Of a stretch of DNA of 64,000 nt, positions 8,728 to 50,931 are shown one piece after another. The stretch's first letter is position 1, and every line of letters starts with the position of its first letter. A program made the translations under genes and the position numbers. The notes under the pieces were generated by a model. It had not been told where the DNA came from. It did no database searches and saw nothing but the letters and a program-made list of their open reading frames with translations. The stretch is from Acidimicrobiales bacterium (GTDB lineage: Bacteria > Actinomycetota > Acidimicrobiia > Acidimicrobiales > Aldehydirespiratoraceae): the NCBI GenBank assembly GCA_965116865.1, contig OZ220727.1, positions 173,333 through 237,332 on the forward strand. The letters run 5' to 3'.

Positions 8728-8905
8728 CTGCGACTCATCGGGTTCGCACCTGTCCGCGCGTGAGGTGATCCGTTAGTGTCGGCTGCACGAGATCGGCGCC
8801 TGCGACTCATCGGGTTCGCACCTGTCCGCGCGTGAGGTGATCCGTTAGTGTCGGCTGCACGAGATCGGCGCCTGCGACTCATCGGGTTCGCACCTGTCTG
8901 CGCGT
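8728..8905. repeat. 72-bp tandem repeat, about 2.5 copies
   Basis: Units start at 8728, 8800 and 8872 (CTGCGACTCATCGGGTTCGCACCTGTCCGCGCGTGAGGTGATCCGTTAGTGTCGGCTGCACGAGATCGGCGC), about 70 bp upstream of the ligase start. Confidence 0.9.
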
Positions 8906-8972
8906 GCTCTGGGTGCCGCGTCCCCGCGGCGCGTTACGATGCATCACTGTTCCAACCACCGGAGCGACCCGC

Positions 8973-10601
8973 ATGAGCGACCCGATCTACGACGCCAGAA
9001 CCTTCTGGGAACTGCTCGACCGGCGGGCGGCGGCCACACCCGACCGGACGATGCTCCTCGACGAGGCGGGACGCTCGCTGACGTTCGCAGAGTTCAAGAA
9101 CCGGGCCGAGCGCGTGGCCGCGGGGCTGCTGGCCATGGGCGCCGCCGAGGGCACGCCGGTCACCTGGGTCCTGCCTACCCGCATCGAGACCGTGCTCACG
9201 AGCTTCGCTCTCAGCCGGCTGGGCGCGGTGCAGAACCCGATCATCCACGTCTACCGCCGCCGCGAGGTCGAGTTCTGCGTCCGGCAGACGCGGGCCGAGC
9301 TGGTATTGCATCCCGGGGCGTGGTCGGGGTTCGACTACGGGGCCATGGTCGACGGGATCGTCGCGGGGCTCGACCACGAGGCCCGGGCGCTGAACGGCTA
9401 CGACGCCCTTCCCGACGGAGACCCGGCCGCCTTGCCGCCCACCCCGGGGCCCGGCGACGACGCGGGCAAAGTGCGCTGGACGTACTACACCTCGGGAACC
9501 ACCTCCGATCCCAAGGGCGTGAAGCACACCGACGCGTCGCTGATAGCCGGCGGAGTCGGGCTGGCCCGTGCGCTGGACGTGAGCGACGACGACGTGGGCT
9601 CGATCGCCTTCCCCTACGCCCATATCGGCGGACCCGAGTACATGGTCATGATGTTGGCCGCCGGGTTCGGCGCCGTTCTCGTGGAGCGCTTCGACCCGGC
9701 GGCCGCAGTCTTGGCCTACGCCCGCCACGGCGTGACCATGGCCGGCGGCTCGACCGTCTTCTACCAGATGTTCCTCGAGGAGGACCGCAAGTCTCGCCGG
9801 TCCGCCGGCCGTCCCGCCATGCCCGCGCTGCGGGTGCTGTCGGGCGGGGGCGCCCCCAAGCCGCCCGAGATCCACTTCCGGGCGAAGGAGCAGATGGGTG
9901 TGCCAGTGGCCCACGGATACGGCATGACCGAGTGCTCGATGATCTCGCAGGGGTCTCCTCGCGACAGCGACCGCCAGCTGGCGCACACCGACGGCCGCCC
10001 GGTACACGGCTGCGAGGTGTCGATCGTCGCGATGGCCTCCGACGGCGGCGAGGCTCCCGCCCCGGCCGGGGTGCAGGGCGAGGTGCGGGTGAGCGGGCCG
10101 ATGCTGTTCTCGGGCTACACCGACCCCCGCCTCGACAAGGAGGCGTTCGACGCTCGGGGCCGCTTCCGCACCGGCGATCTGGGAGTGCTGGGCGCCGACG
10201 GGCACCTGACGCTCACCGGACGGGTGAAGGACATCATCGTCCGCAGGGGGGAGAACATCTCGGCCAAGGAGATCGAGGACGTGCTGCATACCCACGACAA
10301 GGTGGGCGCAGCCGCTGTGATCGGCCTGTCGGACCCCCAGCGGGGCGAGCGGGTCTGTGCGGTGGTCGAGACCGCGCCCGGCGCCGACGACCTGACTTTC
10401 GAGGAGATGGCAGAGGCCTGCCTGGCGGCCGGCCTGGCCCGCCGGAAAGTTCCCGAGCAGCTAGAGATCTTTCCCGGTCCGCTGCCCCGCAACGCCACCC
10501 TCAAGATCCTCAAGCACAAGCTGCGGGAGGTCTACGAGGCCCGCCGGCCGGTGTCCCTGGCCGCGCGAACCGTCTACGAAGCACGGCAGGAAGAGGACTG
10601 A
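8973..10601 (+). CDS. AMP-dependent synthetase/ligase (acyl-CoA synthetase-like)
   Basis: AMP-binding motif YTSGTTSDPKGV and C-terminal GDLG...GRVKD. Start placed at ATG 8973 (MSDPIYDART..., GGAG 9 nt upstream) rather than the ORF-track start at 8904. Confidence 0.85.
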   Translation: MSDPIYDARTFWELLDRRAAATPDRTMLLDEAGRSLTFAEFKNRAERVAAGLLAMGAAEGTPVTWVLPTRIETVLTSFALSRLGAVQNPIIHVYRRREVEFCVRQTRAELVLHPGAWSGFDYGAMVDGIVAGLDHEARALNGYDALPDGDPAALPPTPGPGDDAGKVRWTYYTSGTTSDPKGVKHTDASLIAGGVGLARALDVSDDDVGSIAFPYAHIGGPEYMVMMLAAGFGAVLVERFDPAAAVLAYARHGVTMAGGSTVFYQMFLEEDRKSRRSAGRPAMPALRVLSGGGAPKPPEIHFRAKEQMGVPVAHGYGMTECSMISQGSPRDSDRQLAHTDGRPVHGCEVSIVAMASDGGEAPAPAGVQGEVRVSGPMLFSGYTDPRLDKEAFDARGRFRTGDLGVLGADGHLTLTGRVKDIIVRRGENISAKEIEDVLHTHDKVGAAAVIGLSDPQRGERVCAVVETAPGADDLTFEEMAEACLAAGLARRKVPEQLEIFPGPLPRNATLKILKHKLREVYEARRPVSLAARTVYEARQEED

Positions 10602-10608
10602 CACGCCC

Positions 10609-11007
10609 ATGGCCAACATTGTTATATACCATAACAAGCATTGAAACTCCTCCAAAAATGCCGTGGCGGTCGCTGCGGAAGCCAACGCTGACGTTGAGGT
10701 GGTGCTCTACATGTCCGACCGTCCCGACCGCGACACGCTCCGGGGCATCGTCGACCGGTTGGAGGACCCGGTGGAGAACCTGGTCCGCAAGGACTCGCAG
10801 TTCTCGAAGCTGGGGCTGGACCCCGACGACTACGTCGGCGACCCCGACGCGGTGGTGGAGGTGCTGCTCCGGTATCCGAGGCTGATGCAGCGTCCGGTGC
10901 TGGTCGGCGGCGACCGGGCCATCATCGGGCGGCCGCTCGGCGACACGAAGGCCAAGGACCGGCTGGCCGAGTTCCTGGGCGCCGAGACGGCCGGCGGGAG
11001 CTCGTGA
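10609..11007 (+). CDS. ArsC/Spx-family reductase-like protein with in-frame TGA (10642-10644) at the catalytic Cys position
   Basis: ATG 10609 gives MANIVIYHNKH-TGA-NSSKNAVAV..., continuous with ORF 10663..11007 in the same frame. This aligns with the ArsC N-terminus IYHNPxCxxSRNxL, and the C-terminal PRLMQRPVLV...IIGRP is typical of the family. Confidence 0.6.
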
Positions 11008-11163
11008 CGTCAGGAGAGTGCTGAGCGAGGCCGTGGCCGGCGCGGCCCGTGAGCGCAGCGAACGGTAGCGAGAATCACGGGTCGGCCGCGCCCGGCGCTC
11101 CGCGGCTCGCTACCGTGGGCCGAGACCAGACCGACCACACCTTCAGACCACAAGGGGGCGCCG

Positions 11164-11352
11164 ATGCGAATCGTCGTTGACTTCGATCTGTGCGAGAGCA
11201 ATGCCGTCTGCATGCAGATCGCGCCCGACATCTTCGAGGTGCGAGACGACGACTTCCTCTACATCCTCGACGAGACGCCCGGCGAAGCCGACCGGGCCAG
11301 GGTTCAGGAGTGCGTGCAACGCTGCCCCAAGCAGGCCATCTCGATAGCTTGA
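11164..11352 (+). CDS. small ferredoxin (single Fe-S cluster type)
   Basis: 62-aa ORF with the pattern VDFDLCESNAVC...CVQRCPKQAI, typical of actinobacterial 3Fe-4S/4Fe-4S ferredoxins. Confidence 0.8.
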   Translation: MRIVVDFDLCESNAVCMQIAPDIFEVRDDDFLYILDETPGEADRARVQECVQRCPKQAISIA

Positions 11353-11482
11353 GAGGCCGAGCGAGCAGGCGAGCCGATCGGTTGAACACGGGCGGCGAGG
11401 CCGCGGCCCGAGCGGCCCGTGAGCGCATCGGACGAGAGCGCGCAGGCCGGTGCTCTGAGCCGGTGCCGGGATCCGGCTGCGC

Positions 11483-12685
11483 ATGACCGAAGCCCGGCGC
11501 GCCGTCACCATCGTCGGGGCCTCGCTGGCGGGCTTGAACGCGGCCGAGGCCCTGCGCCGGGAGGGCTTCGACGGCCCGGTCGTCCTCATCGGCGCCGAGA
11601 AGCATCTGCCGTATGACCGGCCTCCGCTGTCCAAGCAGGTGCTGGCGGGCGACTGGGCGCCGGAGCGGGTCGCGCTGACCGACTCCGAGAAACTGGAGGA
11701 GGACGGCATCGAGACGCGTCTCGGCGTGCGGGCCACCCGTCTGGACCTGGATGCACGGGAGCTGGCCCTCGACACCGGCGAGACTGCGGCCTTCGACGGG
11801 CTCGTCGTTGCCACCGGATCCCGCTGCCGCACCATCGGCGGCGTCGAGGGACTGCAGGGAGTGCATGTCCTGCGCTCGCTGGACGACTGCCTGGCGTTGC
11901 GCGCCGACTTCGAGGCGACGCCTCAGAGGGTGGTGGTGGTGGGCGCCGGCTTCATCGGCGCGGAGGTGGCCGCCACGGCGCGGGGACGCGGACTCGAGGT
12001 CACGGTGGTGGAGGCGCTGCCCACTCCGCTGAGCCGGGTGCTCGGAGACGAGATGGGCGAGGTGTGCGCCGAGGTCCACCGCGACCACGGCGTCGATTTG
12101 CGCACCGGGGTCGGCGTGAGCGCCGTCTCCGGCGGCGGCCGGGTGGAGCAGGTGACGCTGTCGGACGGCTCGGCGGTGGACGCCGACGTGGTGGTGGTCG
12201 GCATAGGCGTGATCCCCAACACCGAGTGGCTGGACGGCTCGGGTCTGAAGGTGGACGACGGCGTGGTGTGCGACGCCTCGTGCCTGGCAGCGGAGGGAGT
12301 GGCCGCGGCGGGTGACGTGGCCCGCTGGCCCAACGGGCTGTTCGGCGAGACGATGCGGGTGGAGCACTGGGACAACGCCGCGCAGCAGGGCGCCCAAGCG
12401 GCCCGTCGCCTGCTCGACTCGTCGACGGGGCCGTTCACGCCGGTGCCGTGGTTCTGGAGCGACCAGTACGACCGCAAGATCCAGCTCGCCGGCCGGGTGC
12501 GCCCCGACGACGAGGTGCGGGTGGTGGCCGGCTCGGTCGCCGAGCGGCGGTTCGCGGCGGTCTACGGTAGGGCCGGTCGGCTTGTGGGGGTGCTCGGCTT
12601 CAACCGCCCCCGCCACGTGATGCGCTACCGGGCCCTGATCGAGCGGCGCGCCGGCTTCGAAGAGGCCCTCGCCGCCGAGTTCTGA
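11483..12685 (+). CDS. FAD-dependent ferredoxin/NAD(P)H oxidoreductase (ferredoxin reductase)
   Basis: 400-aa ORF with two dinucleotide-binding motifs (IVGASLAG, VVVVGAGFIGAEVA). Adjacent to the ferredoxin gene. Confidence 0.85.
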   Translation: MTEARRAVTIVGASLAGLNAAEALRREGFDGPVVLIGAEKHLPYDRPPLSKQVLAGDWAPERVALTDSEKLEEDGIETRLGVRATRLDLDARELALDTGETAAFDGLVVATGSRCRTIGGVEGLQGVHVLRSLDDCLALRADFEATPQRVVVVGAGFIGAEVAATARGRGLEVTVVEALPTPLSRVLGDEMGEVCAEVHRDHGVDLRTGVGVSAVSGGGRVEQVTLSDGSAVDADVVVVGIGVIPNTEWLDGSGLKVDDGVVCDASCLAAEGVAAAGDVARWPNGLFGETMRVEHWDNAAQQGAQAARRLLDSSTGPFTPVPWFWSDQYDRKIQLAGRVRPDDEVRVVAGSVAERRFAAVYGRAGRLVGVLGFNRPRHVMRYRALIERRAGFEEALAAEF

Positions 12686-12972
12686 ACGGGTTGCACTCGT
12701 CGGCGCAGCCCCGCAGCCGTGCTTCGGCGCCTGTCAGTCGCCGTTCCGGCTCGGTCGCAGCGCAGCGCCGGCTAGTAGCGGATCTTCGAGCGCTCGAGGC
12801 GGTGGTTCACAGGGACGGCAGCGCAGCGGCGAGGCAGGGTCCGCGGGTTTCGGGCGGGTGCGGGTAGCCTGTTGCGGTCCCGCCGACGGCGGGACGTGTC
12901 GTGTGCAGCACGCACGCTGCCGGCCTCGCACAGCGGGCCATGCAGCAGGGTCCGATACCCAATGGAGATTCC

Positions 12973-13254
12973 ATGCCAATCAGCCTCCCTCCCAAGGCCG
13001 CGACCATCGCTTCGATGGCGGAGGCCTTCGACTTGGAGGAGAACGACACCGGCTCACCCGAGGTCCAGGTCGCTCTGCTCTCGGATCGCATCAACCATCT
13101 CACCGAGCATCTGCGGGTCCACAAGAAGGACCATCACAGCCGGAGGGGTCTGCTGATGCTGGTGGGCAGGCGCAGGAGGCTGCTCGACTATGTGAAGGAG
13201 AACGACGTCGAGCGGTACCGGGCGGTCATCGCCCATCTCGGTCTGCGGCGCTGA
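12973..13254 (+). CDS. rpsO: 30S ribosomal protein S15
   Basis: [37 protein letters not shown]...LGLRR. Start set at ATG 12973 (GGAG at 12964-12967), giving 93 aa. Confidence 0.95.
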
Positions 13255-13262
13255 GCACGACC

Positions 13263-13284
13263 CGGGCGGCTCCAGGGCCGCCCG
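13263..13284 (+). terminator. GC hairpin 3' of rpsO (possible attenuator/terminator, no U tract)
   Basis: CGGGCGG-CTCCAGGG-CCGCCCG, a 7-bp stem located 9 nt after the rpsO stop. Confidence 0.3.
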
Positions 13285-13449
13285 CCCGGCTGTCTGCGCC
13301 GACCGGCGTCGAGCGGCCGGCGACGATCCCAGTGACAACCGACAATCAGGCGCGACCGCTCCGGTGCTAGTCGCATCGGCCCCGTCCCGGGCAATCCGGC
13401 ATCCGACGGGACCGATACGACTGGGAACTGGCGGGGTCGCGCCCATACC

Positions 13450-13469
13450 GGGCCCCCGGACGGGGGCCT
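13450..13469 (+). promoter_or_regulatory. pnp leader hairpin abutting the Shine-Dalgarno sequence
   Basis: GGCCCCC-GGAC-GGGGGCC (7 bp plus a G-U pair) ends 1 nt before GAGGAG (13471-13476), which precedes the pnp ATG at 13484. Confidence 0.3.
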
Positions 13470-13483
13470 CGAGGAGCATTCCC

Positions 13484-16015
13484 ATGGCTGAAGCCATTTC
13501 TGTCACTGGTGCGTTCACGCGCGCCGAAGGCAAGGACGCCACCTTCGAGACGGGCCTGCTGGCCCCGCTCGCGGGAGGCGCCGTCACCGTCCGGATGGGT
13601 GACACGGTGGTGCTCGTGACCGCCACGGGCGCCAAGTCTCCCCGGGAGGGCGCCGACTTCTTCCCCCTGACCGTGGACGTCGAGGAGCGTATGTACGCCG
13701 CGGGCCGCATCCCGGGCTCGTTCTTCCGGCGCGAGGCCCGCGCCGGCGAGCAGGCCGTCCTGACCTGCCGGCTGATAGACCGCCCGCTGCGGCCCAGCTT
13801 TCCCGACGGGTTCCGCAACGAGGTGCATGTCGTTGCCACCGTGCTGGGCGCCGACCAGTCCCATCCCTACGACGTCGCGGCGCTCAACGCGGCCTCCTTG
13901 GCGTTGTGCATCTCGCCGGTTCCCTTCGACGGGCCGATCGGCGCGGTGAGGCTGAGCTGGTCGTCGCCGGGCGAGTGGGTGCCGTTCCCGACGTACGCCG
14001 AGAGCGACGAATCCGCGTTCGAGATGGTGGTGGCCGGCCGGCTCGACGGCGACGACGTCGCCGTGATGATGGTCGAGGCCGGAGGCACCGCCGCCACCTG
14101 GGACCTGTACTCGCACGGCGTCCCCAAGGTGGACGAGGACGTCCTCGCCGGCGGCCTGGAAGCGGCCAAGACCTGGATCCGCGAGATGATCGAGCTGCAG
14201 CAGAAGATGATCGAAGCGGTGGGCCCGGTCGCCAAGATGGACGCGCCGTTGGCCGTCGACTGCGCTGACGACGTTATGGCGGCCGTGCGCGACGCCGCCG
14301 CCGACCGCATCGACTCGACCCAGCGCATCGCCGACAAGACCGACCGGCAGGCCGCCGAGGCTGCCCTGGCCGTCGACGTGACCGCCGAACTGGCGGAGCG
14401 CTTCGGCGACGACCCGGCCGCGGCCCGGCAGATCGGCAGCGCCATCCGCACCGTTGCCAAGGAGGCGGTGCGGCGCCGCATCGTTGCCGAGGGCGTCCGC
14501 ATCGACGGCCGGACCACCGACCAGCTGCGTCCGCTGACGTGCCGGGTCGGGGTGGTGCCGACTGCTCACGGCTCGGGGCTGTTCCAGCGGGGCGAGACGC
14601 AGGTGCTCAACTTCACCACGCTGGGGATCGGACGCAGCGACATGCTGATAGACGACCTGTCGCCCACCGAGAAGAAGCGCTACTTCCATCACTACAACTT
14701 CCCGCCGTTCTGCACCGGCGAGACCGGCTTCATGCGCGGGCCGAAGCGGCGCGAGATCGGGCACGGGGCGCTGGCCGAGCGGGCCGTGTTCCCGGTGGTG
14801 CCCGGCTTCGAGGACTGGCCCTACACGGTGCGCACCGTGTCGGAGGTGATGGCGTCCAACGGGTCGAGCTCGATGGCGTCTGTGTGCGGGTCGACGCTGT
14901 CGCTGATGGACGCCGGCGTCCCGATCAAGGCGCCGGTGGCGGGGGTGGCCATGGGCCTGGTCCACGCCGACGGCGCCTGGGTGACCCTCACCGACATCCT
15001 CGGCGCCGAGGACGCCTTCGGGGACATGGACTTCAAGGTGGCCGGAACCACCGACTTCATCACCGCGCTGCAGCTCGACACCAAGATCTCGGGCATCCCG
15101 GCGTCGGTGCTGGCCGACGCGCTGCGGCAGGCGCACTCGGCTCGCCTCGACATCCTCGACGCGATGGCCGAGACCATCATCGAGCCGAGGCCCGACGTGC
15201 GCGACACCGCTCCGAAGATCAGCTCCTTCGAGATCCCCGTCGAGAAGATCGGCGAGGTGATCGGACCCAAGGGCAAGGTGATCAACGCCATCCAGTCCGA
15301 GACCGGCGCCGACATCAGCGTCGACGACGACGGCGCGGTCGGCATCGTGGCCATCGCCTCCACCGACCGCGGCGCGGTGATGGAAGCCGAGCGGCAGATC
15401 AAGCTCATCCTGGATCCGCCCACCGCCGACATCGGCACCGCCTACCGGGGACGGGTGGTGAACATCACCAAGTTCGGGGCGTTCGTGAACATCCTGCCCG
15501 GACGCGACGGCCTGGTCCACATCTCCAAGCTGGGCGGCGGCAGGCGCATCGACAGGGTCGAGGACGTGCTCGACCTCGGCGAGGAGATCGACGTGGTGGT
15601 CGAGGACGTCGACCCCAACGGGAAGATCTCGCTGCTCCTCAAGTCGGACGACTCCGACCGCGCCGATTCGTCGGGGTTCCGGCGCCGGGAGATGTCCCGG
15701 TCCGGCGGCGGCCGGGGCGGCTCCCGCGGCTTCGGAGGCGGCGGACCCGGACGGGATTCTGGCCGATCCGACCGCGACGGCGGCTTCGGCCGCTACCGCG
15801 ACGGCGGCCGTCCCGAGGCGAGGCGGCCGGAGGCGGGGCGCGCCGACGGCGAATCGCGCCGCGAGGACCGGCCCGGCGCCCGGTCGAGGCCACCCGCTCC
15901 GAGCGCCCAGGGAACCTCGTTCGAGGAGTCTTTCGACCAGGAGCTCGAGCGCGAGTTCGGCGACCTGGGCCCGGACCAGCGAGCACGCCGCGGCGGCCGC
16001 CGCGGTGGCCGCTGA
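13484..16015 (+). CDS. pnp: polyribonucleotide nucleotidyltransferase (PNPase) with an RGG-rich C-terminal extension
   Basis: Two RNase PH domains (FGDMDFKVAG), a KH domain (IGPKGKVINAIQ) and an S1 domain (GRVVNITKFGAFV). Start set at ATG 13484 (MAEAISVTG...) after GAGGAG. About 125 extra R/G/D-rich residues follow S1. Confidence 0.95.
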   Translation: MAEAISVTGAFTRAEGKDATFETGLLAPLAGGAVTVRMGDTVVLVTATGAKSPREGADFFPLTVDVEERMYAAGRIPGSFFRREARAGEQAVLTCRLIDRPLRPSFPDGFRNEVHVVATVLGADQSHPYDVAALNAASLALCISPVPFDGPIGAVRLSWSSPGEWVPFPTYAESDESAFEMVVAGRLDGDDVAVMMVEAGGTAATWDLYSHGVPKVDEDVLAGGLEAAKTWIREMIELQQKMIEAVGPVAKMDAPLAVDCADDVMAAVRDAAADRIDSTQRIADKTDRQAAEAALAVDVTAELAERFGDDPAAARQIGSAIRTVAKEAVRRRIVAEGVRIDGRTTDQLRPLTCRVGVVPTAHGSGLFQRGETQVLNFTTLGIGRSDMLIDDLSPTEKKRYFHHYNFPPFCTGETGFMRGPKRREIGHGALAERAVFPVVPGFEDWPYTVRTVSEVMASNGSSSMASVCGSTLSLMDAGVPIKAPVAGVAMGLVHADGAWVTLTDILGAEDAFGDMDFKVAGTTDFITALQLDTKISGIPASVLADALRQAHSARLDILDAMAETIIEPRPDVRDTAPKISSFEIPVEKIGEVIGPKGKVINAIQSETGADISVDDDGAVGIVAIASTDRGAVMEAERQIKLILDPPTADIGTAYRGRVVNITKFGAFVNILPGRDGLVHISKLGGGRRIDRVEDVLDLGEEIDVVVEDVDPNGKISLLLKSDDSDRADSSGFRRREMSRSGGGRGGSRGFGGGGPGRDSGRSDRDGGFGRYRDGGRPEARRPEAGRADGESRREDRPGARSRPPAPSAQGTSFEESFDQELEREFGDLGPDQRARRGGRRGGR

Positions 16016-16248
16016 GAGCTGCTGCGTGTTGGGGCGGCGTCCGCGGGCCGCGGTGGCCGCTGAGAGCTGCTGCGTGTTGGGGCGGCGTCCGCGGGCCGCG
16101 GTGGCCGCTGAGAGCTGCTGCGTGTTGGGGCGGCGTCCGCGGGCCGCGGTGGCCGCTGAGAGCTGCTGCGTGTTGGGGCGGCGTCCGCGGGCCGCGGTGG
16201 CCGCTGAGAGCTGCTGCGTGTTGGGGCGGCGTCCGCGGGCCGCGGGCC
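16001..16248. repeat. 48-bp perfect tandem repeat, 5 copies, spanning the pnp stop to the dapB start
   Basis: Unit CGCGGTGGCCGCTGAGAGCTGCTGCGTGTTGGGGCGGCGTCCGCGGGC starts at 16001, 16049, 16097, 16145 and 16193. The first unit contains the pnp stop (16013-16015). Confidence 0.95.
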
Positions 16249-16249
16249 G

Positions 16250-16981
16250 ATGATCCGACTCGGTGTCTGCGGTGCCTCCGGCCGCATGGGCACCGAGGCA
16301 TGCCGGGCGATCGACGCTGATCCCGACACCGAGCTGCTGGCCGCGGTCGGCTCCGCCGGCTCGGTCGACGAGTTCGTGGAGGCGGGCGTCGATGCGGTGG
16401 TGGACTTCACTGTCGCGGAGGCGGTCCGGGACAACATGGGCGTGCTTGCGACAGCCGGGATCCACGCCGTCGTAGGGACTACCGGTCTGGGCGTCGGCGA
16501 CTTGGACTCGTTGCGCGCCGCCTTCGTGAGCAGCCATTGCATCGTGGCGCCGAACTTCGCGGTGGGCGCGGTGCTGATGACCCGGTTCGCGGCTCTGGCC
16601 GCCCCCTATTTCGACACCGCCGAGGTGATCGAGATGCACCACGACCGCAAGATGGACGCACCTTCGGGCACGGCCATGGCGACCGTCGAGGCGATGGCAG
16701 TGGCGTCCGCCGACTGGGCGCCGGACCACACTGCCGCCGAGAGCCTTCCCGGCGCACGCGGCGGCCGCGGCCCGGGCGGGATCCCGGTCCACTCGGTGCG
16801 CCTCAAAGGACTGGTCGCGCACCAGGAGGTGCTGCTCGGCGGGCCCGGCGAGACCCTGACGATCCGCCACGACACTGTCGACCGTTCGGCGTTCATGCCT
16901 GGAATGCTCCTCGCGGTCAAGCGGGTGGTGACGCTCGATCCGGGGGTGACCGTCGGCCTCGGCGAGGTTCTGGGCATCTGA
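16250..16981 (+). CDS. dapB: 4-hydroxy-tetrahydrodipicolinate reductase
   Basis: 243 aa with GASGRMG NAD(P) motif and the signature EMHHDRKMDAPSGTA. Confidence 0.9.
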   Translation: MIRLGVCGASGRMGTEACRAIDADPDTELLAAVGSAGSVDEFVEAGVDAVVDFTVAEAVRDNMGVLATAGIHAVVGTTGLGVGDLDSLRAAFVSSHCIVAPNFAVGAVLMTRFAALAAPYFDTAEVIEMHHDRKMDAPSGTAMATVEAMAVASADWAPDHTAAESLPGARGGRGPGGIPVHSVRLKGLVAHQEVLLGGPGETLTIRHDTVDRSAFMPGMLLAVKRVVTLDPGVTVGLGEVLGI

Positions 16982-17531
16982 GACCGGAACGGGGGCGGTG
17001 AGTGCGCTGGCTGGTGTCGCTGGGGTGGGTCGCTTCGCACGTCTTCGCGCTGGCGATGGTCGTGCTGATGGTCGATCTGGGGTTCTGTCTGAGACCGGAA
17101 CGGGGGCGGTGAGTGCGCTGGCTGGTGTCGCTGGGGTGGGTCGCTTCGCACGTCTTCGCGCTGGCGATGGTCGTGCTGATGGTCGATCTGGGGTTCTGTC
17201 TGAGACCGGAACGGGGGCGGTGAGTGCGCCGGCTGGTGTCGCTGGGGTGGGTCGCTTCGCACGTCTTCGCGCTGGCGATGGTCGTGCTGATGGTCGATCT
17301 GGGGTTCTGTCTGAGACCGGAACGGGGGCGGTGAGTGCGCCGGCTGGTGTCGCTGGGGTGGGTCGCTTCGCACGTCTTCGCGCTGGCGATGGTCGTGCTG
17401 ATGGTCGATCTGGGGTTCTGTCTGAGACCGGAACGGGGGCGGTGAGTGCGCCGGCTGGTGTCGCTGGGGTGGGTCGCTTCGCACGTCTTCGCGCTGGCGA
17501 TGGTCGTGCTGATGGTCAACCTGGGGTTCTG
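16977..17531 (+). repeat. 111-bp tandem repeat, 5 copies (4 duplicates plus the native copy), covering the dapB stop and the SURF1 start
   Basis: Units start at 16977, 17088, 17199, 17310 and 17421. They differ only at 1-2 positions (T/C in GTGCGC[T/C]GG). Confidence 0.95.
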
Positions 17532-18192
17532 GCAGCTCCGGCGGCTCGACGAGCGCCGCACGTCGAACGCCGGAATCGCTGCGGCCATGTCCCAAGCCCC
17601 GGTTGACATCGCCGCCCATCTCGACATTCGGGGCCTCCCCCCTGAGCACACCTCGGTCGCGGCGGCAGGCACCTACTTGTCCGGCGCAGAAGTCCGGATC
17701 GGCAACCGCAGCAGCGGCGGGCAGCCCGGCTTCTGGCTGGCGACGCCTCTGCGGCTCGACGACGGGCGGGCGGTGGCGGTTGTCAGGGGCTGGGTCCCCC
17801 GGCGCAGCCTGGCCGGGCGCGACGATCGCGGAGCGGCTCCGCCGGCGGGGGAGGTGACGGTGGTCGGTGCAGCCTTCGACAGCGTCGGTGGCGGCCGGGT
17901 GGCAGAGACCGCCCCGGGTGACGTTCCCGAGATCTCCCGCATGGACCTGGACCGGTTCGAGGAGGTGTCCGGCGTCGACGTGGAGGACACGTGGATCAGG
18001 CTGCGGGCCCAGTCGCCGCCCCAGCCCGAAGGACTGCCCGAGCCGGTGCCGGATCCCGATCTGGGTCCGGGGCCCCACCTGTCGTACGCGTTCCAGTGGT
18101 TCTTCTTCTCCGCCGGCGCGGTGGTGGTGTACGGTTTGATCCTGCGCCGGGCAGCCGCAGGCCGTCCGGAGCCGGCCGACATTCGGATCTGA
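17446..18192 (+). CDS. SURF1-family (cytochrome oxidase assembly) membrane protein
   Basis: GTG start. N-terminal TM helix followed by GFWQLRRLDERR, and a C-terminal TM helix (HLSYAFQWFFFSAGAVVVY), typical of SURF1/Shy1. Confidence 0.8.
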   Translation: MRRLVSLGWVASHVFALAMVVLMVNLGFWQLRRLDERRTSNAGIAAAMSQAPVDIAAHLDIRGLPPEHTSVAAAGTYLSGAEVRIGNRSSGGQPGFWLATPLRLDDGRAVAVVRGWVPRRSLAGRDDRGAAPPAGEVTVVGAAFDSVGGGRVAETAPGDVPEISRMDLDRFEEVSGVDVEDTWIRLRAQSPPQPEGLPEPVPDPDLGPGPHLSYAFQWFFFSAGAVVVYGLILRRAAAGRPEPADIRI

Positions 18193-19492: not shown

Positions 19493-20834
19493 GAGCCTTC
19501 GCGGATTCGTGGGGAGCGGGGTGGTTGAGGGTCCCTGGGTAGGGGTCGGGGCCCTGCTGGGATCGGTGATGTGCATGTCAGCGATCCAGGAGGGCCTCGA
19601 TGGCTTCGGATGTTGTGCGGGTGCGGCTGCACCTGCGCTAGGTCCGTGTGCTCGTGGTGGTGGTGGACACGCCGAGCGAGTTGGTTGTGGAGGTCGAGTC
19701 GGCTGTGAGGCGGCCGGGGTGCCCGGCGTGCGGGTTCTGTTGCGCTCGGGTGCATGACATCCGGCGTCGCGAGATCCGCGACCTGGAGGTGTCGGGACGT
19801 CACACGACGTTGGTGTGGATGCGGCGGCGGTTCTCGTGGGGCAACTGCGGCGAGCGTTTCTTGGAGGACCGCCCAGCCTTCGAGCGACGCCTGGCGCGGC
19901 GGCTGGTGGCCGACGCCGAGGTGATGACAATCAGCGCGGCGGCGCGCTGTCATGGGCTCGGCTGGCATCTGGTGGTGGCGCTGGTGGAGTCTTGGTCGGA
20001 TCTGGTGGCCGGGCACCGGCGCAGCCGCCGCTGGCGGGTGCTGTTGGTCGATGAGACCTCCATGCGCCGCCGGCACCGCTACGTGACCGTGATCGTCAAC
20101 GGCGACACCGGCCGCGCCCTGGCCATGGTCGAGCACCGCAGCGCGGCTGCGCTCAGCGGGTTCTTCGTCGCGCAGCGCCGGCGCTGGTGTCGAGGCGTCC
20201 AGGTCGTGGCCACGGACGGCTCCGGGGCTTGCAGGTCCGCCATCGACGCCCGCTTGGGCCATGCCCGCCACGTGCTGGAGCGGTTCCACGTCATCAGATG
20301 GTTCTCAGCGGGGCTCACCCAGGCGCGCCGCGACATCCAGCGACGCCGGCCACCCGGTGCCAAGCCCGTCTTCGAGCCCGAGGTGTTCAGAGCCAGATTC
20401 GCTCTGCTGCGCCGCGCCGACACCCTCACCGACGCCGACCGGGCCCGCCTCGAGGGCCTCTTCGACGCGCGCCCACGGCTCAGGTCGGGCTGGCAGGCCC
20501 TCCAGGAGCTCCACGGCCCCTACCTCGCCGGCGACCACCACAGCGCCCTCGAAACGCTCGGACGGTTCCGCGACCCCTACAAGACCGGACAGCTGCCCGA
20601 GCTCCACGACATCGTCGACACCATCATCGCCCGCTCCGACGAGATCCTCGCCCAACACCACACCGACCGAGCCCCCAACGGACGCATCGAGAGCACCAAC
20701 AACCCGCTGCAAGTCCTGCGGCGCACCGCCCACGGCTTCACCAACCCCACCAACTTCGAGGCCCTAGGCCTGCTGACAACGCGACCAGCCCACCGGTGCC
20801 AGCAACCCCTCATCCCACGTTTACGCGAAGGGCC
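19493..20834 (+). mobile_element. ISL3-family IS, type B, copy 1
   Basis: Ends GAGCCTTCGCGGATTCGTGGGGAGCGGGG and (rc) GGCCCTTCGCGTAAACGTGGGATGAGGGG are inverted repeats. About 1.34 kb. Confidence 0.8.
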
Positions 20835-20844
20835 CACAACCTGA
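19600..20844 (+). pseudogene. ISL3-B transposase with an early in-frame TAG (19639-19641)
   Basis: ATG 19600 (MASDVVRVRLHLR*), then the same frame continues as ORF 19648..20844. zf-ISL3 motif CPACGF. The native TGA is mutated (ACAACGCGACC versus ACAACGTGACC in copy 3), so the frame reads through the IR. Confidence 0.65.
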
Positions 20845-20875: not shown

Positions 20876-22021
20876 TCACGTCAGGAGCCAGTCGCGGTAT
20901 CCCGGCACGTCGTAGCGAGCTTTGGCGAGCAACTGTTCCGTCTCTCGGATGAGTTCCTCGCGCAGGCGCGAATCACCCTGCAAGATGTCATCGACATTAC
21001 GGCGCTTGGCCGAGCGCTTCAGGATGTGTCTGGCGATAGCGCACTCATCTAGCGGCGTCGGAGCGGCTGGCGCGAGGGCGTCGGGTGACGCGGCGATGAT
21101 CGGCTCGAAGCGAAGGGCGAGCGACACAAGGTCCTCGCACGTCGACATGGGTTCTATCCGGTATGCGTGTGTGCTGGCGAGGTTTACGCGACTGGGACGT
21201 TGGGCCTGCACTAGTGCGGACAGCCATTTGCCAATGGCAACGATCATGAGGTTGAGGAGTTCGGTCTCGCTGCAAGCTGTCGGGTCTACGGTCGCTGCGT
21301 CTAGGTTCAAGTGCTGGTGGCACGCTTCTGTGAAGCCTTCGCAGTTCGTGACGTTGCTGCGGAAGAGAGTGAGCAATTGTTGTTCGGCATCCGCATCGAA
21401 CATCCCTCGTCCTATTCTCGTGCTCACTAGCAAGAGCCACGGCTCGGGGTTATGGGTTTGAAGTGCCACTAACTGCGCGAGCGCGCCGTAGATCGCTCCA
21501 TCGTTGTGCGGCGGGTCCGACGCGAGCCCGTCACAGAGATCGATGTTGACGACATCGAAGGGGCCGAGGGATCGAGCTCGTGCCCATGCGATCGATGCCT
21601 CATCGCCGATACGGCGGAAGTCGTCATGGAGCACTTCGGACTGCGGGTCGACGTTGGACAGACGACGCACCTCATCGAGTGAGAGACTCAGATCGACGTG
21701 GGCGGGACTGCCCGGCTGTGCTTCGGTGCTGAAGCCGAGGAATCGGAGCGTGCGTCCCTCAGCACGACAGAGCTTCTCATGGAGGTACCGGAGATCGAGC
21801 AGGTCTGTTCCTGGCAAGCCCAAGTATCGCAGAGGCTCGTCTGGTTGCCGTCGCTGGTAGAGGTGTCGCAGTAGGGCCAGTAGCTGCTTGCACCGGACGA
21901 ACTGCTTGCGCGGCTTGTGCCACGGCTTGAAGGTCTTCGGCGCAGCCGGAGTGGGTCGGTACTCGACTTCGCCGAAGATTTCCGCGGCGAGATCATCCTC
22001 ATCAGCCGATTGGAAGCTCAC
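20876..22021 (-). CDS. hypothetical protein, Rossmann methyltransferase-like fold without a catalytic (D/N)PPY motif; partner of the GHKL ATPase
   Basis: 381-aa ORF. Its GTG start overlaps the ATPase stop (GTGA). Strand/helix pattern: LRYLGLPGTD...LRFLGFSTE...FDVVNIDLCDG...WLLLVST. N-terminal basic motif KPWHKPRKQFVR. No family recognised. Confidence 0.7.
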   Translation of the reverse strand: MSFQSADEDDLAAEIFGEVEYRPTPAAPKTFKPWHKPRKQFVRCKQLLALLRHLYQRRQPDEPLRYLGLPGTDLLDLRYLHEKLCRAEGRTLRFLGFSTEAQPGSPAHVDLSLSLDEVRRLSNVDPQSEVLHDDFRRIGDEASIAWARARSLGPFDVVNIDLCDGLASDPPHNDGAIYGALAQLVALQTHNPEPWLLLVSTRIGRGMFDADAEQQLLTLFRSNVTNCEGFTEACHQHLNLDAATVDPTACSETELLNLMIVAIGKWLSALVQAQRPSRVNLASTHAYRIEPMSTCEDLVSLALRFEPIIAASPDALAPAAPTPLDECAIARHILKRSAKRRNVDDILQGDSRLREELIRETEQLLAKARYDVPGYRDWLLT

Positions 22022-24072
22022 TGCTCGGAGGCCTCAAGGATCTTGCGCAGTCCTGCAAGAAGGCGCTCCTGCTGCTGCTTGGTGAGGTTCTCGAGGATGC
22101 CGTACGCTGCGAGGAGCTGGACGATCGCTCGGAGCTTTCGTTCCGTGGACTGGTCCTGGCGTGTTCTCTGTCGGCTTCGCTGACCGAAGACCGGTTCGCG
22201 CCGGAATCGGTACGCTCCGGACTCGACAGACATCGGCTCTTCGGCCGAGTCGTCGAAGTCAACCGGAGGCGGCTTCGATCCCGGGTCGTCAGACTCGACC
22301 TGCCACGCGGTAGCCGCGACGTTCGACAGAACCTCCTCCTCCTCTTCTGCGGCGGCTTGCCGAGTTTCCTTACGAATTTCAGCCGCTATCCGCTTCTGGG
22401 CTGTCGCGACGCGTCTCAGGGACGCGTGCAGCCATTTCGTGATGTACACCACATGCGGGTGGGCGTAGTTGAATGACTCGCGATCGATGTTCAGCGCCGC
22501 TTCCAAGCCCTCAGAAACGAAGATCTCACACGAGATCTGTCTGAGCCTCGTCTGCTCGGATACCTGATATCGCATGAACGTCGGGTCGAACAGCGTCCCG
22601 CTCGATCCGTGTACCCGCACGAGAACGCCTTGATGCTCCGTAGGGGCGATCTTCGGTGCCCATAGGAGATACATCTCGAACTCGAGTGGCCCGCCGGTGA
22701 ACTCGCGTGGAATTCCGTCGAACTCCTCACGGCACCGCCCGACAAACAGGATCGGCTTCTTGACGGCGTGGCTCGTCGACGGAAGGTCGGCGAATACGAG
22801 TGGACGAGCGAGCTGCAAGTCGTCGATCAGCACGGTGAAGTCGCTCCCAACGTGGGCTGCGGAGCCGATCGACCTGCTCCCCCGGACTGTTGCGTCACCG
22901 GTGAGTTGGAACTTCTTCGGTGCTGCTTTGCGGGACTTCGGCATCTCGAAGAGATACACACTGTCCTGGAGCGATAGGTCGAAGGGGCTGCCGACGACGT
23001 ATGGAGCTGGTATGGCCAAGCTGAGTTGCCACACCATCCGCAGGTAGTAATCGAAGATGCGTTCAAGCTGCGGGTTGGGTATGCCGTGCTCCAACTGCTT
23101 CCACACTGCCCTGACCAGCTTCTCGAAGGCGGCCCTAGGTTCATCCTCCCGGGTCCACGGGAGGCTGTTGTAGACACCACCGGCATCGCTCTGGAGAACG
23201 TCGGAGTCATCCCGCTGCACGCGGTCATCCCGCTGCACGCGACCTATGTGGAATTCGGGCGGGCTGAGGTCTCTCGCTTCCTCGGGCGCTAGCTCTCGGT
23301 CGGAATCGATGGCGGCCCACAGATCGCGGCTCTGGAGCGTGTCTTGAGTCTGAGGCCTGATGTCGGTCAGGATGATCGAGGTGCCGTGCGACCATGCGTC
23401 GAGGGCTGGCTCTCGCCAGATCTCCACGCGTCCCGCCTCGTACTCACCCTGCTCGTCAGGTGGAAGTACGTTGTCATCGTGCGGCGGCCCTCCGTTATCG
23501 GAGTATTGACGTAGCACGACCGAAGCGACCGTTCGGCAGGGGTCGGCGGCAGTCTTAGTGATGATCTGGAAGCGGTGGGTCAGCTGCGCGACCGAGAAGA
23601 GACCGATCCCGATCTTGCCGATGAGCCGGCGCCCTGACGGGCTGCGAGTGGGGTCCGCGCTGTCCGTGATGCCGAGGTCTGCCCCTTCGTGGGACCGCTT
23701 GGCGCTGCCGCCGATGTGATGGAGAAGGTACGCGAGGGCCTTCGGCGTCATCCCTATTCCGTCGTCCTCGACCGTCAGCGTTTGGAACCGAGGTCGATCG
23801 GTCTTAATGACCACCCGTGCAGCATCGGCGTCGTAGGCATTGGAGACGAGTTCTCTGATCGCCGAGCCCGGCTGCCTGTAGATTCCGTCGGTGACCCTGG
23901 CGAGCACCCGTTCGTCTGTCTTGAGGACGGTGCTGACGGGGGATTCGCTGGAGCTGTCCTCGATACTGGCGGCAAGCTTGGCGTCGGCGCTGTCTTGCCC
24001 GCGCGGGACGTTCACGGCTGCTCCGATGTGCAAGCAGGGAGGGGCTCTCGCTGTAGTGGCGTTGGGGTCCAC
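22018..24072 (-). CDS. Hsp90-like GHKL (Bergerat-fold) ATPase
   Basis: 684 aa. GTG start with GAGGAGG 7 nt upstream. N-box IRELVSNAYDA, G1 box DDGIGM, G2 box GKIGIGLFS. ALNIDRESF resembles the Hsp90 middle-domain LNISRE loop. No nuclease motif seen. Confidence 0.8.
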   Translation of the reverse strand: MDPNATTARAPPCLHIGAAVNVPRGQDSADAKLAASIEDSSSESPVSTVLKTDERVLARVTDGIYRQPGSAIRELVSNAYDADAARVVIKTDRPRFQTLTVEDDGIGMTPKALAYLLHHIGGSAKRSHEGADLGITDSADPTRSPSGRRLIGKIGIGLFSVAQLTHRFQIITKTAADPCRTVASVVLRQYSDNGGPPHDDNVLPPDEQGEYEAGRVEIWREPALDAWSHGTSIILTDIRPQTQDTLQSRDLWAAIDSDRELAPEEARDLSPPEFHIGRVQRDDRVQRDDSDVLQSDAGGVYNSLPWTREDEPRAAFEKLVRAVWKQLEHGIPNPQLERIFDYYLRMVWQLSLAIPAPYVVGSPFDLSLQDSVYLFEMPKSRKAAPKKFQLTGDATVRGSRSIGSAAHVGSDFTVLIDDLQLARPLVFADLPSTSHAVKKPILFVGRCREEFDGIPREFTGGPLEFEMYLLWAPKIAPTEHQGVLVRVHGSSGTLFDPTFMRYQVSEQTRLRQISCEIFVSEGLEAALNIDRESFNYAHPHVVYITKWLHASLRRVATAQKRIAAEIRKETRQAAAEEEEEVLSNVAATAWQVESDDPGSKPPPVDFDDSAEEPMSVESGAYRFRREPVFGQRSRQRTRQDQSTERKLRAIVQLLAAYGILENLTKQQQERLLAGLRKILEASEQ

Positions 24073-24260
24073 ATGGCAACCTCCTCGCAGTGACGGGCTT
24101 CTAGTCCGTCATGTCTCCCGGCGGCAAGCCGAACCGTCCCAGTGTGGTCGTTGCGGGCGACGCCGTGACAGCGATTCCGGCCGAGACGGCCTGCGGCAGA
24201 GCCCCACGCCGAGGGATTGAATCCAGCGGGCCTGGCGGCCCCGGGGAAGCCGTCGCATCT

Positions 24261-25802
24261 TCAGGCCGCTCGTCGCCGCGACGGCTCGGCGACGGACGAG
24301 TCCGAGGCCTCCAGCGACGCCCGCAAAGCCTCCGCAACCGCGTGCGCGAGTGCGGGCGGCACCGCATTCGCTACCTGCAGCGGTTGGCTCGCCCTTGGCC
24401 CGGAGAAGAAGTAGCTGTCAGGGAAGCCCTGGATCCGCGCAGCCTCCCGCACGGTGATCGCCCGGTTCTCGATCGGATGCACAGGCAAGGCCCGATGACC
24501 GGCTACGAGAGTGCGCGCGACATCGTCATTGAGTCGCCGGTAGGAGATCGGGCCACCGCCCTGAGGGATCGCCGCGATCTTCGCCATGACCCTCGGCGAG
24601 TGATTCATGGCGGTCGAGTTCAGGACGACGCGTCCGTCGGGGAGATGGAGCCGCTCCGCCCCCTCACCGGGGCTTAGATCCGGAAGATCCCGGAGTCGTT
24701 CGAGCAACGATGCTGTCCGAGGCAGGGGACGGTCGGGGGAGGCATCGCCCGGCGGGGAGTGGGTCGGAGTTGGTGCGGCGGGCAGGTCGATGCCGGGGCC
24801 CACGCCCACGAAGAACAGCCGTCTTCGATTCTGGGGTACCCCGAAGTCAGAAGCACGCAGCGTGGCAGGCTGCTCCCAGGTCGCATAGCCCGCCTTGCGC
24901 AGAGATGCGGTGATGCGCTCCGTGTAGCTGACCCCGTTCACGCGGCGGACGCCCGGGACGTTCTCGATCATGACGGACCGTGCCCAGAGTTCTTTCGCGA
25001 GCCGACTCACGTGACGGAACAGCAGGTTGCGCTCGTCACCGATCGTCCGGGCGCCAGCGGCGGAGTACCCCTGGCAGGGAGGGCCGGCGATAACGGCCGC
25101 CGGCGCGTCCAAGCCCGGCAGCCATGACCGCAGCGCGTCTCCATCCACCTCCTCGACGGAAGCCTCCAGGACGGGCACTCCCGGATGGTTCAGGCGGTAT
25201 GTCTGCGCAGCATGCCGTTCGATCTCGACAGCGGCCGCGATGCGGAAGCCAGCCTGCGCGAAACCCAGCCCCATCGCACCGGCACCGCCGAACAGATCTA
25301 CAACCGCCGCATTGTCGGCGGCGTTGGCGACCTTGGAGCGGCCCGTCTCGCAGAACGACACCAGCGAGCAACTCCCGCATCTCGGAGCCACCTCAGCGCA
25401 CACCGCCCGCCCGTGACTCACCAGATTCGCATGCAGCCGGGCCCGCACGGGCTTGGGGACAGCGGCCCCGAGCGCGTCGTGATCCGGCCTCTTCGGCTGG
25501 CCGTCGACGATGCCGAGTCGCCCAAGAATGCGGTACACATGCTTGTTGTCCGCTGGGCGGTTCCCTTCGTCCGACAAGGTGCCATGCTCGCTGGTCCAGT
25601 ACTGCGCTTCGAGGATCTCATCCACTCGTTGGAGCAATGCACCAGCTGCGGGTGCCACGCAGGCGGTCACGAGGATCCCAGCTTCATCGGACGGATGGCG
25701 AACACGCCTGAAGGACGTCGGAATGCGAGCCACCGTCGAATCTGTGCAACATGCCGACGGCCAAGAACTTGAGCTGTTCAGACATCCAGCACCTCCGACC
25801 AC
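24261..25802 (-). CDS. DNA (cytosine-5) methyltransferase with an N-terminal EndoIII/MIG-like iron-sulfur (HhH-GPD C-terminal) domain
   Basis: C5-MTase motifs DLFGGAGAMGLG (I), GPPCQGYS (IV), ENVPG (VI), QNRRRLFFVG (VIII), ANAVPP (X). The N-terminal ~165 aa carry ADNKHVYRILGRLG and HGRAVCAEVAPRCGSCSLVSFC (a Cx6Cx2Cx5C cluster loop, as in endonuclease III). Confidence 0.85.
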   Translation of the reverse strand: MVGGAGCLNSSSSWPSACCTDSTVARIPTSFRRVRHPSDEAGILVTACVAPAAGALLQRVDEILEAQYWTSEHGTLSDEGNRPADNKHVYRILGRLGIVDGQPKRPDHDALGAAVPKPVRARLHANLVSHGRAVCAEVAPRCGSCSLVSFCETGRSKVANAADNAAVVDLFGGAGAMGLGFAQAGFRIAAAVEIERHAAQTYRLNHPGVPVLEASVEEVDGDALRSWLPGLDAPAAVIAGPPCQGYSAAGARTIGDERNLLFRHVSRLAKELWARSVMIENVPGVRRVNGVSYTERITASLRKAGYATWEQPATLRASDFGVPQNRRRLFFVGVGPGIDLPAAPTPTHSPPGDASPDRPLPRTASLLERLRDLPDLSPGEGAERLHLPDGRVVLNSTAMNHSPRVMAKIAAIPQGGGPISYRRLNDDVARTLVAGHRALPVHPIENRAITVREAARIQGFPDSYFFSGPRASQPLQVANAVPPALAHAVAEALRASLEASDSSVAEPSRRRAA

Positions 25803-25842
25803 GACTCGCCATCACACTACTTTCTGTTCCAAGCTAGCGAGA

Positions 25843-33652: not shown

Positions 33653-33693
33653 GGCGTCTCCTCTTAGCAGGCTGCTGAAAAAGTCGCTGCGGG

Positions 33694-38530: not shown

Positions 38531-38615
38531 GAGGCTGGTGTTTTTCTCGGGTGGGGTTGGGTGTGTGTGGTAGAGTTGCAGGGATGTTGTTCGGTCTCGT
38601 GGGGAGGTTCGTGTC

Positions 38616-50820: not shown

Positions 50821-50931
50821 GAACTGCGAGGCATCATCTTGGAATATCCTGCCCCGGCTAGGACTCTGCTGTATCGTTTGCAGCGTCGAAGTCGTTCGTA
50901 GCATCCATAGCAGATTGGGACGGCCCCCTAC

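Follow-up and report, generated by a model that had tools for sequence, protein, structure and literature searches.

An in-frame TGA at the catalytic position of an Acidimicrobiales arsC gene is a conserved, probable selenocysteine codon

Does an in-frame TGA at the catalytic position of a reductase gene specify selenocysteine (Sec), or does it mark a gene that has only just been inactivated? The question is raised by an ArsC-family reading frame at positions 10609-11007 (forward strand) of a 64,000-nucleotide stretch of contig OZ220727.1 from an Acidimicrobiales bacterium; the whole of this 64-kb stretch is referred to below as the window. The initial annotation had proposed both answers, a selenoprotein candidate and a freshly killed gene, and the elements that it described (the Shine-Dalgarno-like AAGAGGA, the ATG at 10609, the peptide MANIVIYHNKH, the TGA at 10642-10644 and the continuation of the same frame to 11007) are all present. 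As discussed below, the most probable reading (roughly 0.92) is that positions 10609-11007 are one intact gene encoding a 132-residue ArsC-family selenoprotein, in which Sec12, specified by the UGA at 10642-10644, would serve as the nucleophile of a UxxS motif.

AAGAGGA, as read from the sequence, occupies positions 10591-10597, 11 nt 5' of the start codon (ATG, 10609-10611), and lies within the last codons of an upstream AMP-binding gene (stop codon 10599-10601; both on the forward strand). In the frame set by this ATG, MANIVIYHNKH is followed by the TGA at 10642-10644, by NSSKNAVAVAAEAN... and finally by a TGA stop codon at 11005-11007. The complete coding sequence (CDS), delimited by its translation, its profile and PDB matches and tblastn, has 132 sense codons (131 standard residues and Sec12) and the TGA stop, with the UxxS motif encoded as U12-N-S-S15. 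Open reading frame (ORF) finding yields only a truncated, GTG-started frame of 114 amino acids at 10663-11007.

A protein search of a 5.8-billion-protein collection returned 708 relatives, of which the best 120 (66-89% identity) were inspected. For comparison at the DNA level, one genome per species was used, giving 80 loci with 51-86% protein identity to the window gene and full-length tblastn matches running through the TGA (81 sequences with the window). Most of the 80 loci are from Acidimicrobiia, many of them labelled Candidatus Aldehydirespirator or sponge-associated Acidimicrobiaceae, and several are from Verrucomicrobiales or Akkermansiaceae, so that two phyla are spanned. The aligned codon is TGA in 81/81 sequences (residue 12; 10642-10644 in the window) and is never TAA, TAG, TGC or TGT. 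The I-Y-H-N codons 5' of it are 91-100% conserved at their first and second positions, in the same frame as the 3' part of the gene. Because the TGA is kept in all 81 sequences and the upstream codons are conserved in frame, a nonsense mutation or sequencing error is effectively excluded as an explanation. On this comparative sequence evidence, the TGA is a conserved Sec codon and the gene is intact.

Alignment of the orthologues for Cys or Sec, as the initial annotation had recommended, also pairs the two residues at this site. Cys is found in three rare full-length orthologues (P0112, P0121 and P0122), in which the codon is TGC (loci L081, L083 and L084). Two of these, P0112 and P0121, are syntenic and are located upstream of rpsO-pnp-dapB-SURF1. 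A Cys-form query, too, retrieves almost exclusively truncated relatives of the Sec type (discussed below), and Sec can therefore be regarded as the dominant state of the subfamily.

The UGA is followed by a hairpin at 10661-10678 (forward strand) with the features of a selenocysteine insertion sequence (SECIS) core. This hairpin has the 5' arm CCGUGGC (10661-10667), the loop GGUC (10668-10671) and the 3' arm GCUGCGG (10672-10678), which form a stem of 7 bp that includes two G.U wobbles in the window copy. It starts after a 16-nt A/U-rich spacer (AACUCCUCCAAAAAUG, 10645-10660) that is unpaired in the RNAalifold consensus. RNAalifold predicts a single helix from the 81 sequences (columns 20-26 with 31-37) with an invariant GGUC loop and the consensus CCGUGGC[GGUC]GCYRCGG. 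Compensatory changes are found in 3/7 pairs (GC to UA in 5 sequences, GC to AU in 4 and CG to GC in 1), and UA to UG wobble changes are found in 19 sequences. Among distinct rows of the alignment, 98.4% of cells are paired, compared to 29-73% when the 3' arm is slid. In none of 500 shuffles was the covariation score or the paired percentage as high as observed, and 3/500 matched the number of covarying pairs; the covariation is also higher than in every slid control. The hairpin is also constrained beyond its protein-coding role: the region GCC GUG GCG GUC GCC ACG GA is near-invariant in nucleotides across both phyla, and third-codon positions in the hairpin are 0.90-1.00 conserved versus mostly 0.36-0.58 in their neighbours. 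In the Cys orthologues the hairpin is lost (3/3), with no structure in two and a relic stem with an AAGCCG loop in the third.

The hairpin fits the bacterial SECIS (bSECIS) model as quoted in a 2026 review (PMC13188914). The apical loop is 4 nt (required: 3-9 nt), the stem is 7 bp (4-16 bp), the required G in the first two loop positions is present as GG, the UGA-to-loop spacing is 23 nt (16-37 nt) and the folding energy in the window, given as minimum free energy (MFE), is -10.6 kcal/mol (-7.5 kcal/mol or lower). When the window and 85 loci (~1.7 Mb, both strands) were scanned for a TGA followed after 16-37 nt by a stem of at least 6 bp with a GGUY loop in an ORF context, only these arsC genes were found. 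A search of the window for further Sec-TGA codons identified no other TGA with coding-like GC content at third codon positions on both sides.

The initial annotation had sought a SECIS in two other hairpins, 10664-10667 with 10681-10684 (3' arm GCCA) and 10669-10675 with 10686-10692 (3' arm CGCUGAC), and had considered both weak. Their complementarity is as described; as functional candidates both are rejected, because in the 81-sequence alignment neither 3' arm is conserved. The conserved hairpin shares part of the 5' arm proposed there and has a different 3' partner, and despite the bases shared with 10661-10678 the two proposals are unsupported as their own partners are not conserved. The hairpins seemed weak because single-sequence folding statistics and Rfam miss the element; the conservation in orthologues that the initial annotation had called for is present at 10661-10678, with covariation in its support. 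A lower helix, in which the UCC-UCC region pairs with downstream GGAG/CGAG, appears in some MFE folds in shifting registers, is absent from the RNAalifold consensus and was likewise discarded.

Several individual loci depart from the common pattern. In one Acidimicrobiales chromosome (L041:10034-10082), the TGA is kept and the consensus 3' arm is destroyed (GCGAAAA). In the MFE fold of this locus, the 5' bases of the consensus hairpin instead form part of a shifted hairpin whose CGUG loop is 17 nt from the UGA; this hairpin would still fit the bSECIS model, and the locus may represent SECIS remodelling. On a TARA metagenome contig (L085:46-414, encoding P0123), the codon at this site is GGA (Gly), and both the AAT before it and the complete SECIS hairpin are retained; the Gly of P0123 is a genuine GGA codon and not a TGA translated as Gly. 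This GGA has one of three origins: an inactivating T-to-G change of very recent date, variation within the population, or a mistake in the reads or the assembly. Two loci titled 'Gammaproteobacteria' and 'Actinomyces sp.' (L058, CAXMSE010000034.1, and L043, RFFY01000763.1) have arsC(Sec) genes that match the Acidimicrobiia loci, and in one of the two the N-terminal sequence and SECIS are nearly identical to those of L056. The labels of these metagenome-assembled genomes are likely the result of mis-binning or mislabelling.

With U replaced by C, the product has the conserved domain PF03960 (Pfam ArsC; E-value: 9e-12, 45.5 bits against a cut-off of 24), and its best NCBIfam match is TIGR00014 arsC (73.4 bits). 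TIGR01617 (Spx) scores 40.3 bits against a cut-off of 75.05, and NF041106 (ArsC-like UxxC selenoprotein) gives no match at an E-value of 0.01 or below. The best PDB sequence matches are to R773 ArsC (1I9D and 1JZW; E-value: ~1e-12), and residue 12 aligns with catalytic Cys12 of this enzyme, so that the TGA does fall on the nucleophilic Cys, as had been noted at the outset. The catalytic loop is H-N-x-H-U-N-S-S-K-N in the window protein and H-N-P-A-C-G-T-S-R-N in R773. Three arginines, R60, R95 and R108, are invariant in alignments of 15 and 24 sequences (codons on the forward strand). Arg60 (10786-10788) aligns with Arg60 of the oxyanion-binding triad of R773 ArsC (1I9D), and Arg95 (10891-10893) aligns with its Arg94 (...LINRPIVV / ...LMQRPVLV). 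Arg108 (10930-10932) is part of a conserved G-R-P motif and, from the position of that motif, is presumably the equivalent of R773 ArsC Arg107. The fold was assessed using an AlphaFold model of the Cys orthologue P0112 (pLDDT 90.6), which stands in for the window protein. This model is closest to the glutaredoxin-type ArsC structures 3RDW, 1I9D and 3F0I (TM 0.72-0.84), with Spx and YffB next, and the residues 5' of the UGA make up strand beta-1 and the catalytic loop. As the catalytic loop, the arginine triad and the closest fold all match ArsC, an ArsC-like mechanism is the most economical.

The proposed model for expression and function of the gene is as follows. During translation of the first 11 codons, the hairpin at 10661-10678 would be bound by SelB with GTP and Sec-tRNA(Sec), and this complex, competing with RF2, would bring Sec to the A site. 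Structure at the site is probably prevented and/or termination weakened by the A/U-rich spacer together with the U that is conserved just before the UGA, and translation would continue past the UGA to the true stop codon at 11005-11007. In the finished protein, an oxyanion, in the simplest case arsenate, would be bound by the Arg60/Arg95/Arg108 triad and attacked by the selenolate at position 12; a thiol or redoxin partner would resolve the adduct. The conservation of the UGA, the pairing of Sec with Cys in the orthologues, the covarying hairpin, and the fold and conserved residues support this model directly. We infer SelB-dependent insertion, the arsenate substrate and the identity of the reductant by analogy with known systems.

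A number of results weigh against this model, either in its Sec-decoding part or in its arsenate part. No tRNA-Sec is found in the 64-kb window, in which ARAGORN and Rfam detect tRNA-Val only, or in 60 of the loci. Genes for selA, selB and selD were not found by tblastn in the window and the flanks of the 80 loci, using E. coli SelA, SelB and SelD sequences that were validated against Pfam; for the window, which is 64 kb of a ~4-Mb genome, the negative result is uninformative. The window copy of the hairpin is weakened by its two G.U pairs, and the folding energy of 49-nt segments is not significantly better than that of shuffles (z = -0.4 to -1.5); single-sequence folds of 10642-10710 and 10590-10730 are no better than shuffles either (z = +0.12 and -0.84). 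Neither a gathering scan of the whole window nor a permissive scan of 10560-10760 matched a SECIS or other relevant Rfam family. Because these energies are indistinguishable from those of shuffles, thermodynamics alone is insufficient and comparative analysis is needed. As for arsenate, the TIGR00014 score is below the equivalog cut-off of 106.05, and no ars genes are found nearby in the window or in any locus examined. Actinobacteria generally use mycothiol, not glutathione, and a glutaredoxin-coupled scheme may therefore not transfer to this protein. Functions of such selenoproteins are largely uncharacterised experimentally (PMC13188914).

Sec-decoding genes are on record in related bacteria, which supports the selenoprotein reading indirectly. 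All complete genomes of Actinomarina, a member of the Acidimicrobiia, encode selA, selB, selC and selD (84/84; bioRxiv 10.64898/2026.04.03.716425). SelA and SelB are enriched in sponge-symbiont bins (Slaby et al. 2017, PMC5649159), and the Acidimicrobiia sponge bin76 has SelA, SelB and SelD (PMC5649159, Table S4).

The other explanations of the locus can be weighed against the same data. One base change turns TGC or TGT into TGA, and from the window alone a Sec codon and a lesion are indistinguishable; gene callers, moreover, have treated this TGA as a stop in all database entries. A freshly inactivated gene, in which a nonsense mutation or sequencing error has struck an ordinary Cys-type arsC, would nevertheless not be expected to recur as the identical TGA codon in 80 independently assembled relatives from two phyla, with 11 upstream and 120 downstream codons under purifying selection in one frame and a dedicated, conserved hairpin downstream. 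This half of the initial annotation is rejected, its probability being negligible, whereas the selenoprotein candidate is strongly supported by the TGA in 80/80 loci, the upstream constraint, the TGC orthologues and the covarying SECIS. The UGA might alternatively end an 11-residue leader, with a separate 114-residue protein made from GTG 10663 and the hairpin acting as a regulatory or initiation structure. An ORF with this GTG start does exist (10663-11007), and more than 100 database entries are annotated in this manner. Such a protein would, however, be predicted from the structural model to lack strand beta-1 and the whole ArsC catalytic loop. The supposed leader is itself a homologue of the N-terminus of ArsC, IYHN...C motif included, and is fused in frame in the Cys orthologues, and the GTG is within the hairpin stem without a preceding Shine-Dalgarno sequence; production of two polypeptides is hardly credible for these reasons.

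It is also conceivable that the UGA is read through as a residue other than Sec, either by near-cognate suppression with tRNA-Trp or tRNA-Cys or following reassignment to Gly or Trp. The failure to find Sec machinery in the window or the locus flanks would be in keeping with this, as would the Gly at the site in one database protein (P0123). UGA is, however, the ordinary stop codon of both arsC (11005-11007) and the upstream gene (10599-10601), and a genome-wide reassignment is therefore ruled out; P0123, for its part, is encoded by a real GGA. The codon occupies the catalytic nucleophile site, where Cys or Sec alone would be workable and Cys orthologues exist. In addition, the hairpin fits the SelB-binding bSECIS model, including the G-G-U loop start, and related Acidimicrobiia carry complete Sec machinery. 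Readthrough as another residue is accordingly considered very improbable, and a selenoprotein encoded by 10609-11007 is the preferred reading.

Arsenate as the physiological substrate of this selenoprotein is a matter of even odds. The Sec-dominated ArsC clade could instead have a housekeeping role as a selenol reductase that acts on a different oxyanion or on a thiol substrate, a view for which the position of the gene beside core genes and a cluster of acyl-CoA synthetase, ferredoxin and ferredoxin-reductase genes, with no ars genes, can be cited. A second extension of the model concerns the base before the UGA. Position -1 of the Sec-UGA (10641 on the forward strand of the window, the third base of the His11 codon CAT) is T in 80/81 Sec-form genes, whatever the amino acid encoded (CAT His, AAT Asn, TAT Tyr or GGT Gly), and is C in 3/3 Cys-form orthologues (CAC, TAC and CAC before TGC). 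As background, only 3-26% of the His, Asn and Tyr codons in these genes end in T. The sequence pattern suggests that the -1 U is required at the nucleotide level, as a context either for Sec decoding or for the avoidance of termination, and it could act on competition by RF2 or on access of SelB or the ribosome. Taken jointly, the proposals that the -1 U is an unrecognised recoding signal and that the family is a Sec-dominated, stand-alone ArsC clade with a non-arsenic substrate are doubtful.

The 5' end of the window gene is unusual in other respects as well. Local GC is 0.43 around the UGA and spacer (10609-10660) versus ~0.70 in the surroundings. Seven of the first 17 codons are rare in the genome (ATT 5%, GTT 6%, ATA 7%, CAT 20% and used twice, AAA 16% and AAT 3%), and relatives have a milder form of this bias, with TAT, CAT and AAT enriched. 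The A/T-ending codons possibly reflect selection that keeps the 5' end and the UGA region free of structure, or alternatively lineage drift, and the run of rare codons around the UGA may be part of the -1 U signal.

The way in which these genes appear in databases is consistent across the family. Nearly all of the best 120 relatives are 98-114 amino acids in length (mostly 106), have 73-86% query coverage and start with MAVAT... at the position of Val19. The exceptions among these 120 are the full-length Cys form P0112, a shorter fragment, and an entry of 129 residues that has the same truncated start and is extended at the C-terminus. The uniform lengths indicate that gene callers everywhere stop at the same place. 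In the window this false start corresponds to the GTG codon of Val19 within the 5' arm of the SECIS (10663-10665, forward strand), as is evident from the ORF listing and the starts of the homologues. Over 100 entries (P0001-P0120), cut to 106-114 amino acids, likewise start at a GTG or ATG within the SECIS stem and lack the active site, under names such as 'hypothetical protein' or 'arsenate reductase'. The truncated entries of this family are a systematic annotation error, and the window gene would be a genuine case of UGA recoding that is mis-annotated in public data. Correct annotation matters when the selenoproteome and the dependence on selenium are estimated for marine and sponge-associated Acidimicrobiia and Verrucomicrobiales and when inventories of arsenic and redox metabolism are made, and it would provide a marker of Sec-decoding genomes.

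The gene is preceded in the window by an AMP-binding, acyl-CoA-synthetase-like gene (8904-10601) and followed by genes for a ferredoxin (11164-11352) and a ferredoxin reductase (11483-12685) and then by rpsO, pnp, dapB and SURF1. The gene order of 8904-18192 is kept in Acidimicrobiia, with the AMP-binding gene upstream in 54/80 loci and the ferredoxin pair downstream in 40/80; in Verrucomicrobiales and other distant loci, the neighbours are entirely different. The stop codon of the AMP-binding gene is 7 nt before the arsC start and overlaps the arsC ribosome-binding site, an arrangement which suggests that the AMP-binding gene and arsC(Sec) may be co-transcribed. The neighbours give no clue to function.

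Further downstream (~19000-62000), mobile-element and defence genes are abundant in the window. Transposase genes include ISL3 (19648-20844), IS30-like rve (25886-26896), IS630-like DDE_3 (28139-29257), IS256/Mutator (31022-32296) and two of the DUF772/DDE_Tnp_1 type (33679-34989 and 38574-40373). A C5 DNA methylase gene (24261-25811) adjoins a gene for a HATPase protein (22018-24108), and type I restriction-modification genes, hsdM (50911-53100) and hsdR (54455-57556), are found in a stretch of lower GC (0.55-0.60, 48-58 kb). This content fits with reports that the genomes of sponge symbionts are rich in transposases and defence functions.

The initial annotation had stated that ArsC-like selenoproteins were reported in metagenomic surveys, and both the Sargasso Sea and the Global Ocean Sampling (GOS) data sets do contain them. 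In the former (Zhang, Fomenko and Gladyshev 2005, PMC1088965), 'Arsenate reductase' is listed with 14 sequences, COG1393 and a UXXS motif, and the SECIS of AACY01238341 is drawn. The protein of this entry is given in the supplement as MANVTIYHNPHuGSSRNALAVAEEMG... and is 58% identical to the window protein over essentially its full length. Its DNA, printed there as ...CAT TGA GGT TCT TCT CGA AAT GCC TTG GCG GTC GCC..., has the same U before the UGA, the 5' arm of the hairpin and the GGUC loop, the 3' arm being beyond the printed stretch. In the GOS data (Zhang and Gladyshev 2008, PMC2398784), the family is listed as 'Arsenate reductase (ArsC) 1, UxxS'. JCVI_READ_1092256523999 of its supplement (MTAIYHNPNUQSSKNAVAVATEMG...LEDPVENL...) is 61% identical to the window protein, again over essentially the full length. 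'Arsenate reductase, TIGR00014, UxxS' is also listed in the 2026 review (PMC13188914).

Compared to Cys-containing enzymes, the window protein shares the fold of R773 ArsC (1I9D, 1JZW) and its chromosomal homologues 3RDW and 3F0I (TM 0.72-0.84, P0112 model), the catalytic position 12 in an H-N-x-x-[C/U]-x-x-S-[R/K]-N loop and the arginine triad. It differs from R773-type ArsC in having Sec for Cys, in its ~25-29% identity, in its sub-cut-off TIGR00014 score and in the lack of an ars operon. Spx/MgsR, YffB and the 'arsenate reductase-like UxxC' family (NF041106) have the same ArsC/Spx superfamily fold and a CxxC or UxxC motif, in contrast to the UxxS of the window protein. The hairpin has in common with the E. 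coli fdhF-type SECIS and the bSECISearch model an in-CDS stem-loop after the UGA, a small G-G-U loop, the spacing and the MFE. The apical loop of fdhF is GGUC, as in the window hairpin, and starts 5 nt nearer to the UGA than the window loop. Unlike the fdhF-type SECIS, the window hairpin lacks a bulged U in the upper stem and a positionally conserved lower helix including the UGA.

The closest known system is the ArsC 1 UxxS family itself, with which the window protein shares PF03960, the UxxS motif and the N-terminal position of Sec, and from which the window copy is not essentially different. Because this family has been predicted from ocean metagenomes since 2005, the gene is correctly identified and not new; as a discovery it adds little, since the family, its UxxS motif and the SECIS of one member were already published in 2005 and 2008. 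The residual value of the locus is in the systematic mis-annotation of databases and in minor features of the UGA context, namely the -1 U and the rare codons that end in A or T. The window copy is distinguished within the family by its high-GC Acidimicrobiia-type genome, two G.U pairs in the stem, a C-terminal tail ending in ...AETAGGSS and unusually many rare A/T-ending 5' codons. It is one more member, from a high-GC Acidimicrobiia-type genome, of a known family predicted in 2005 and 2008.

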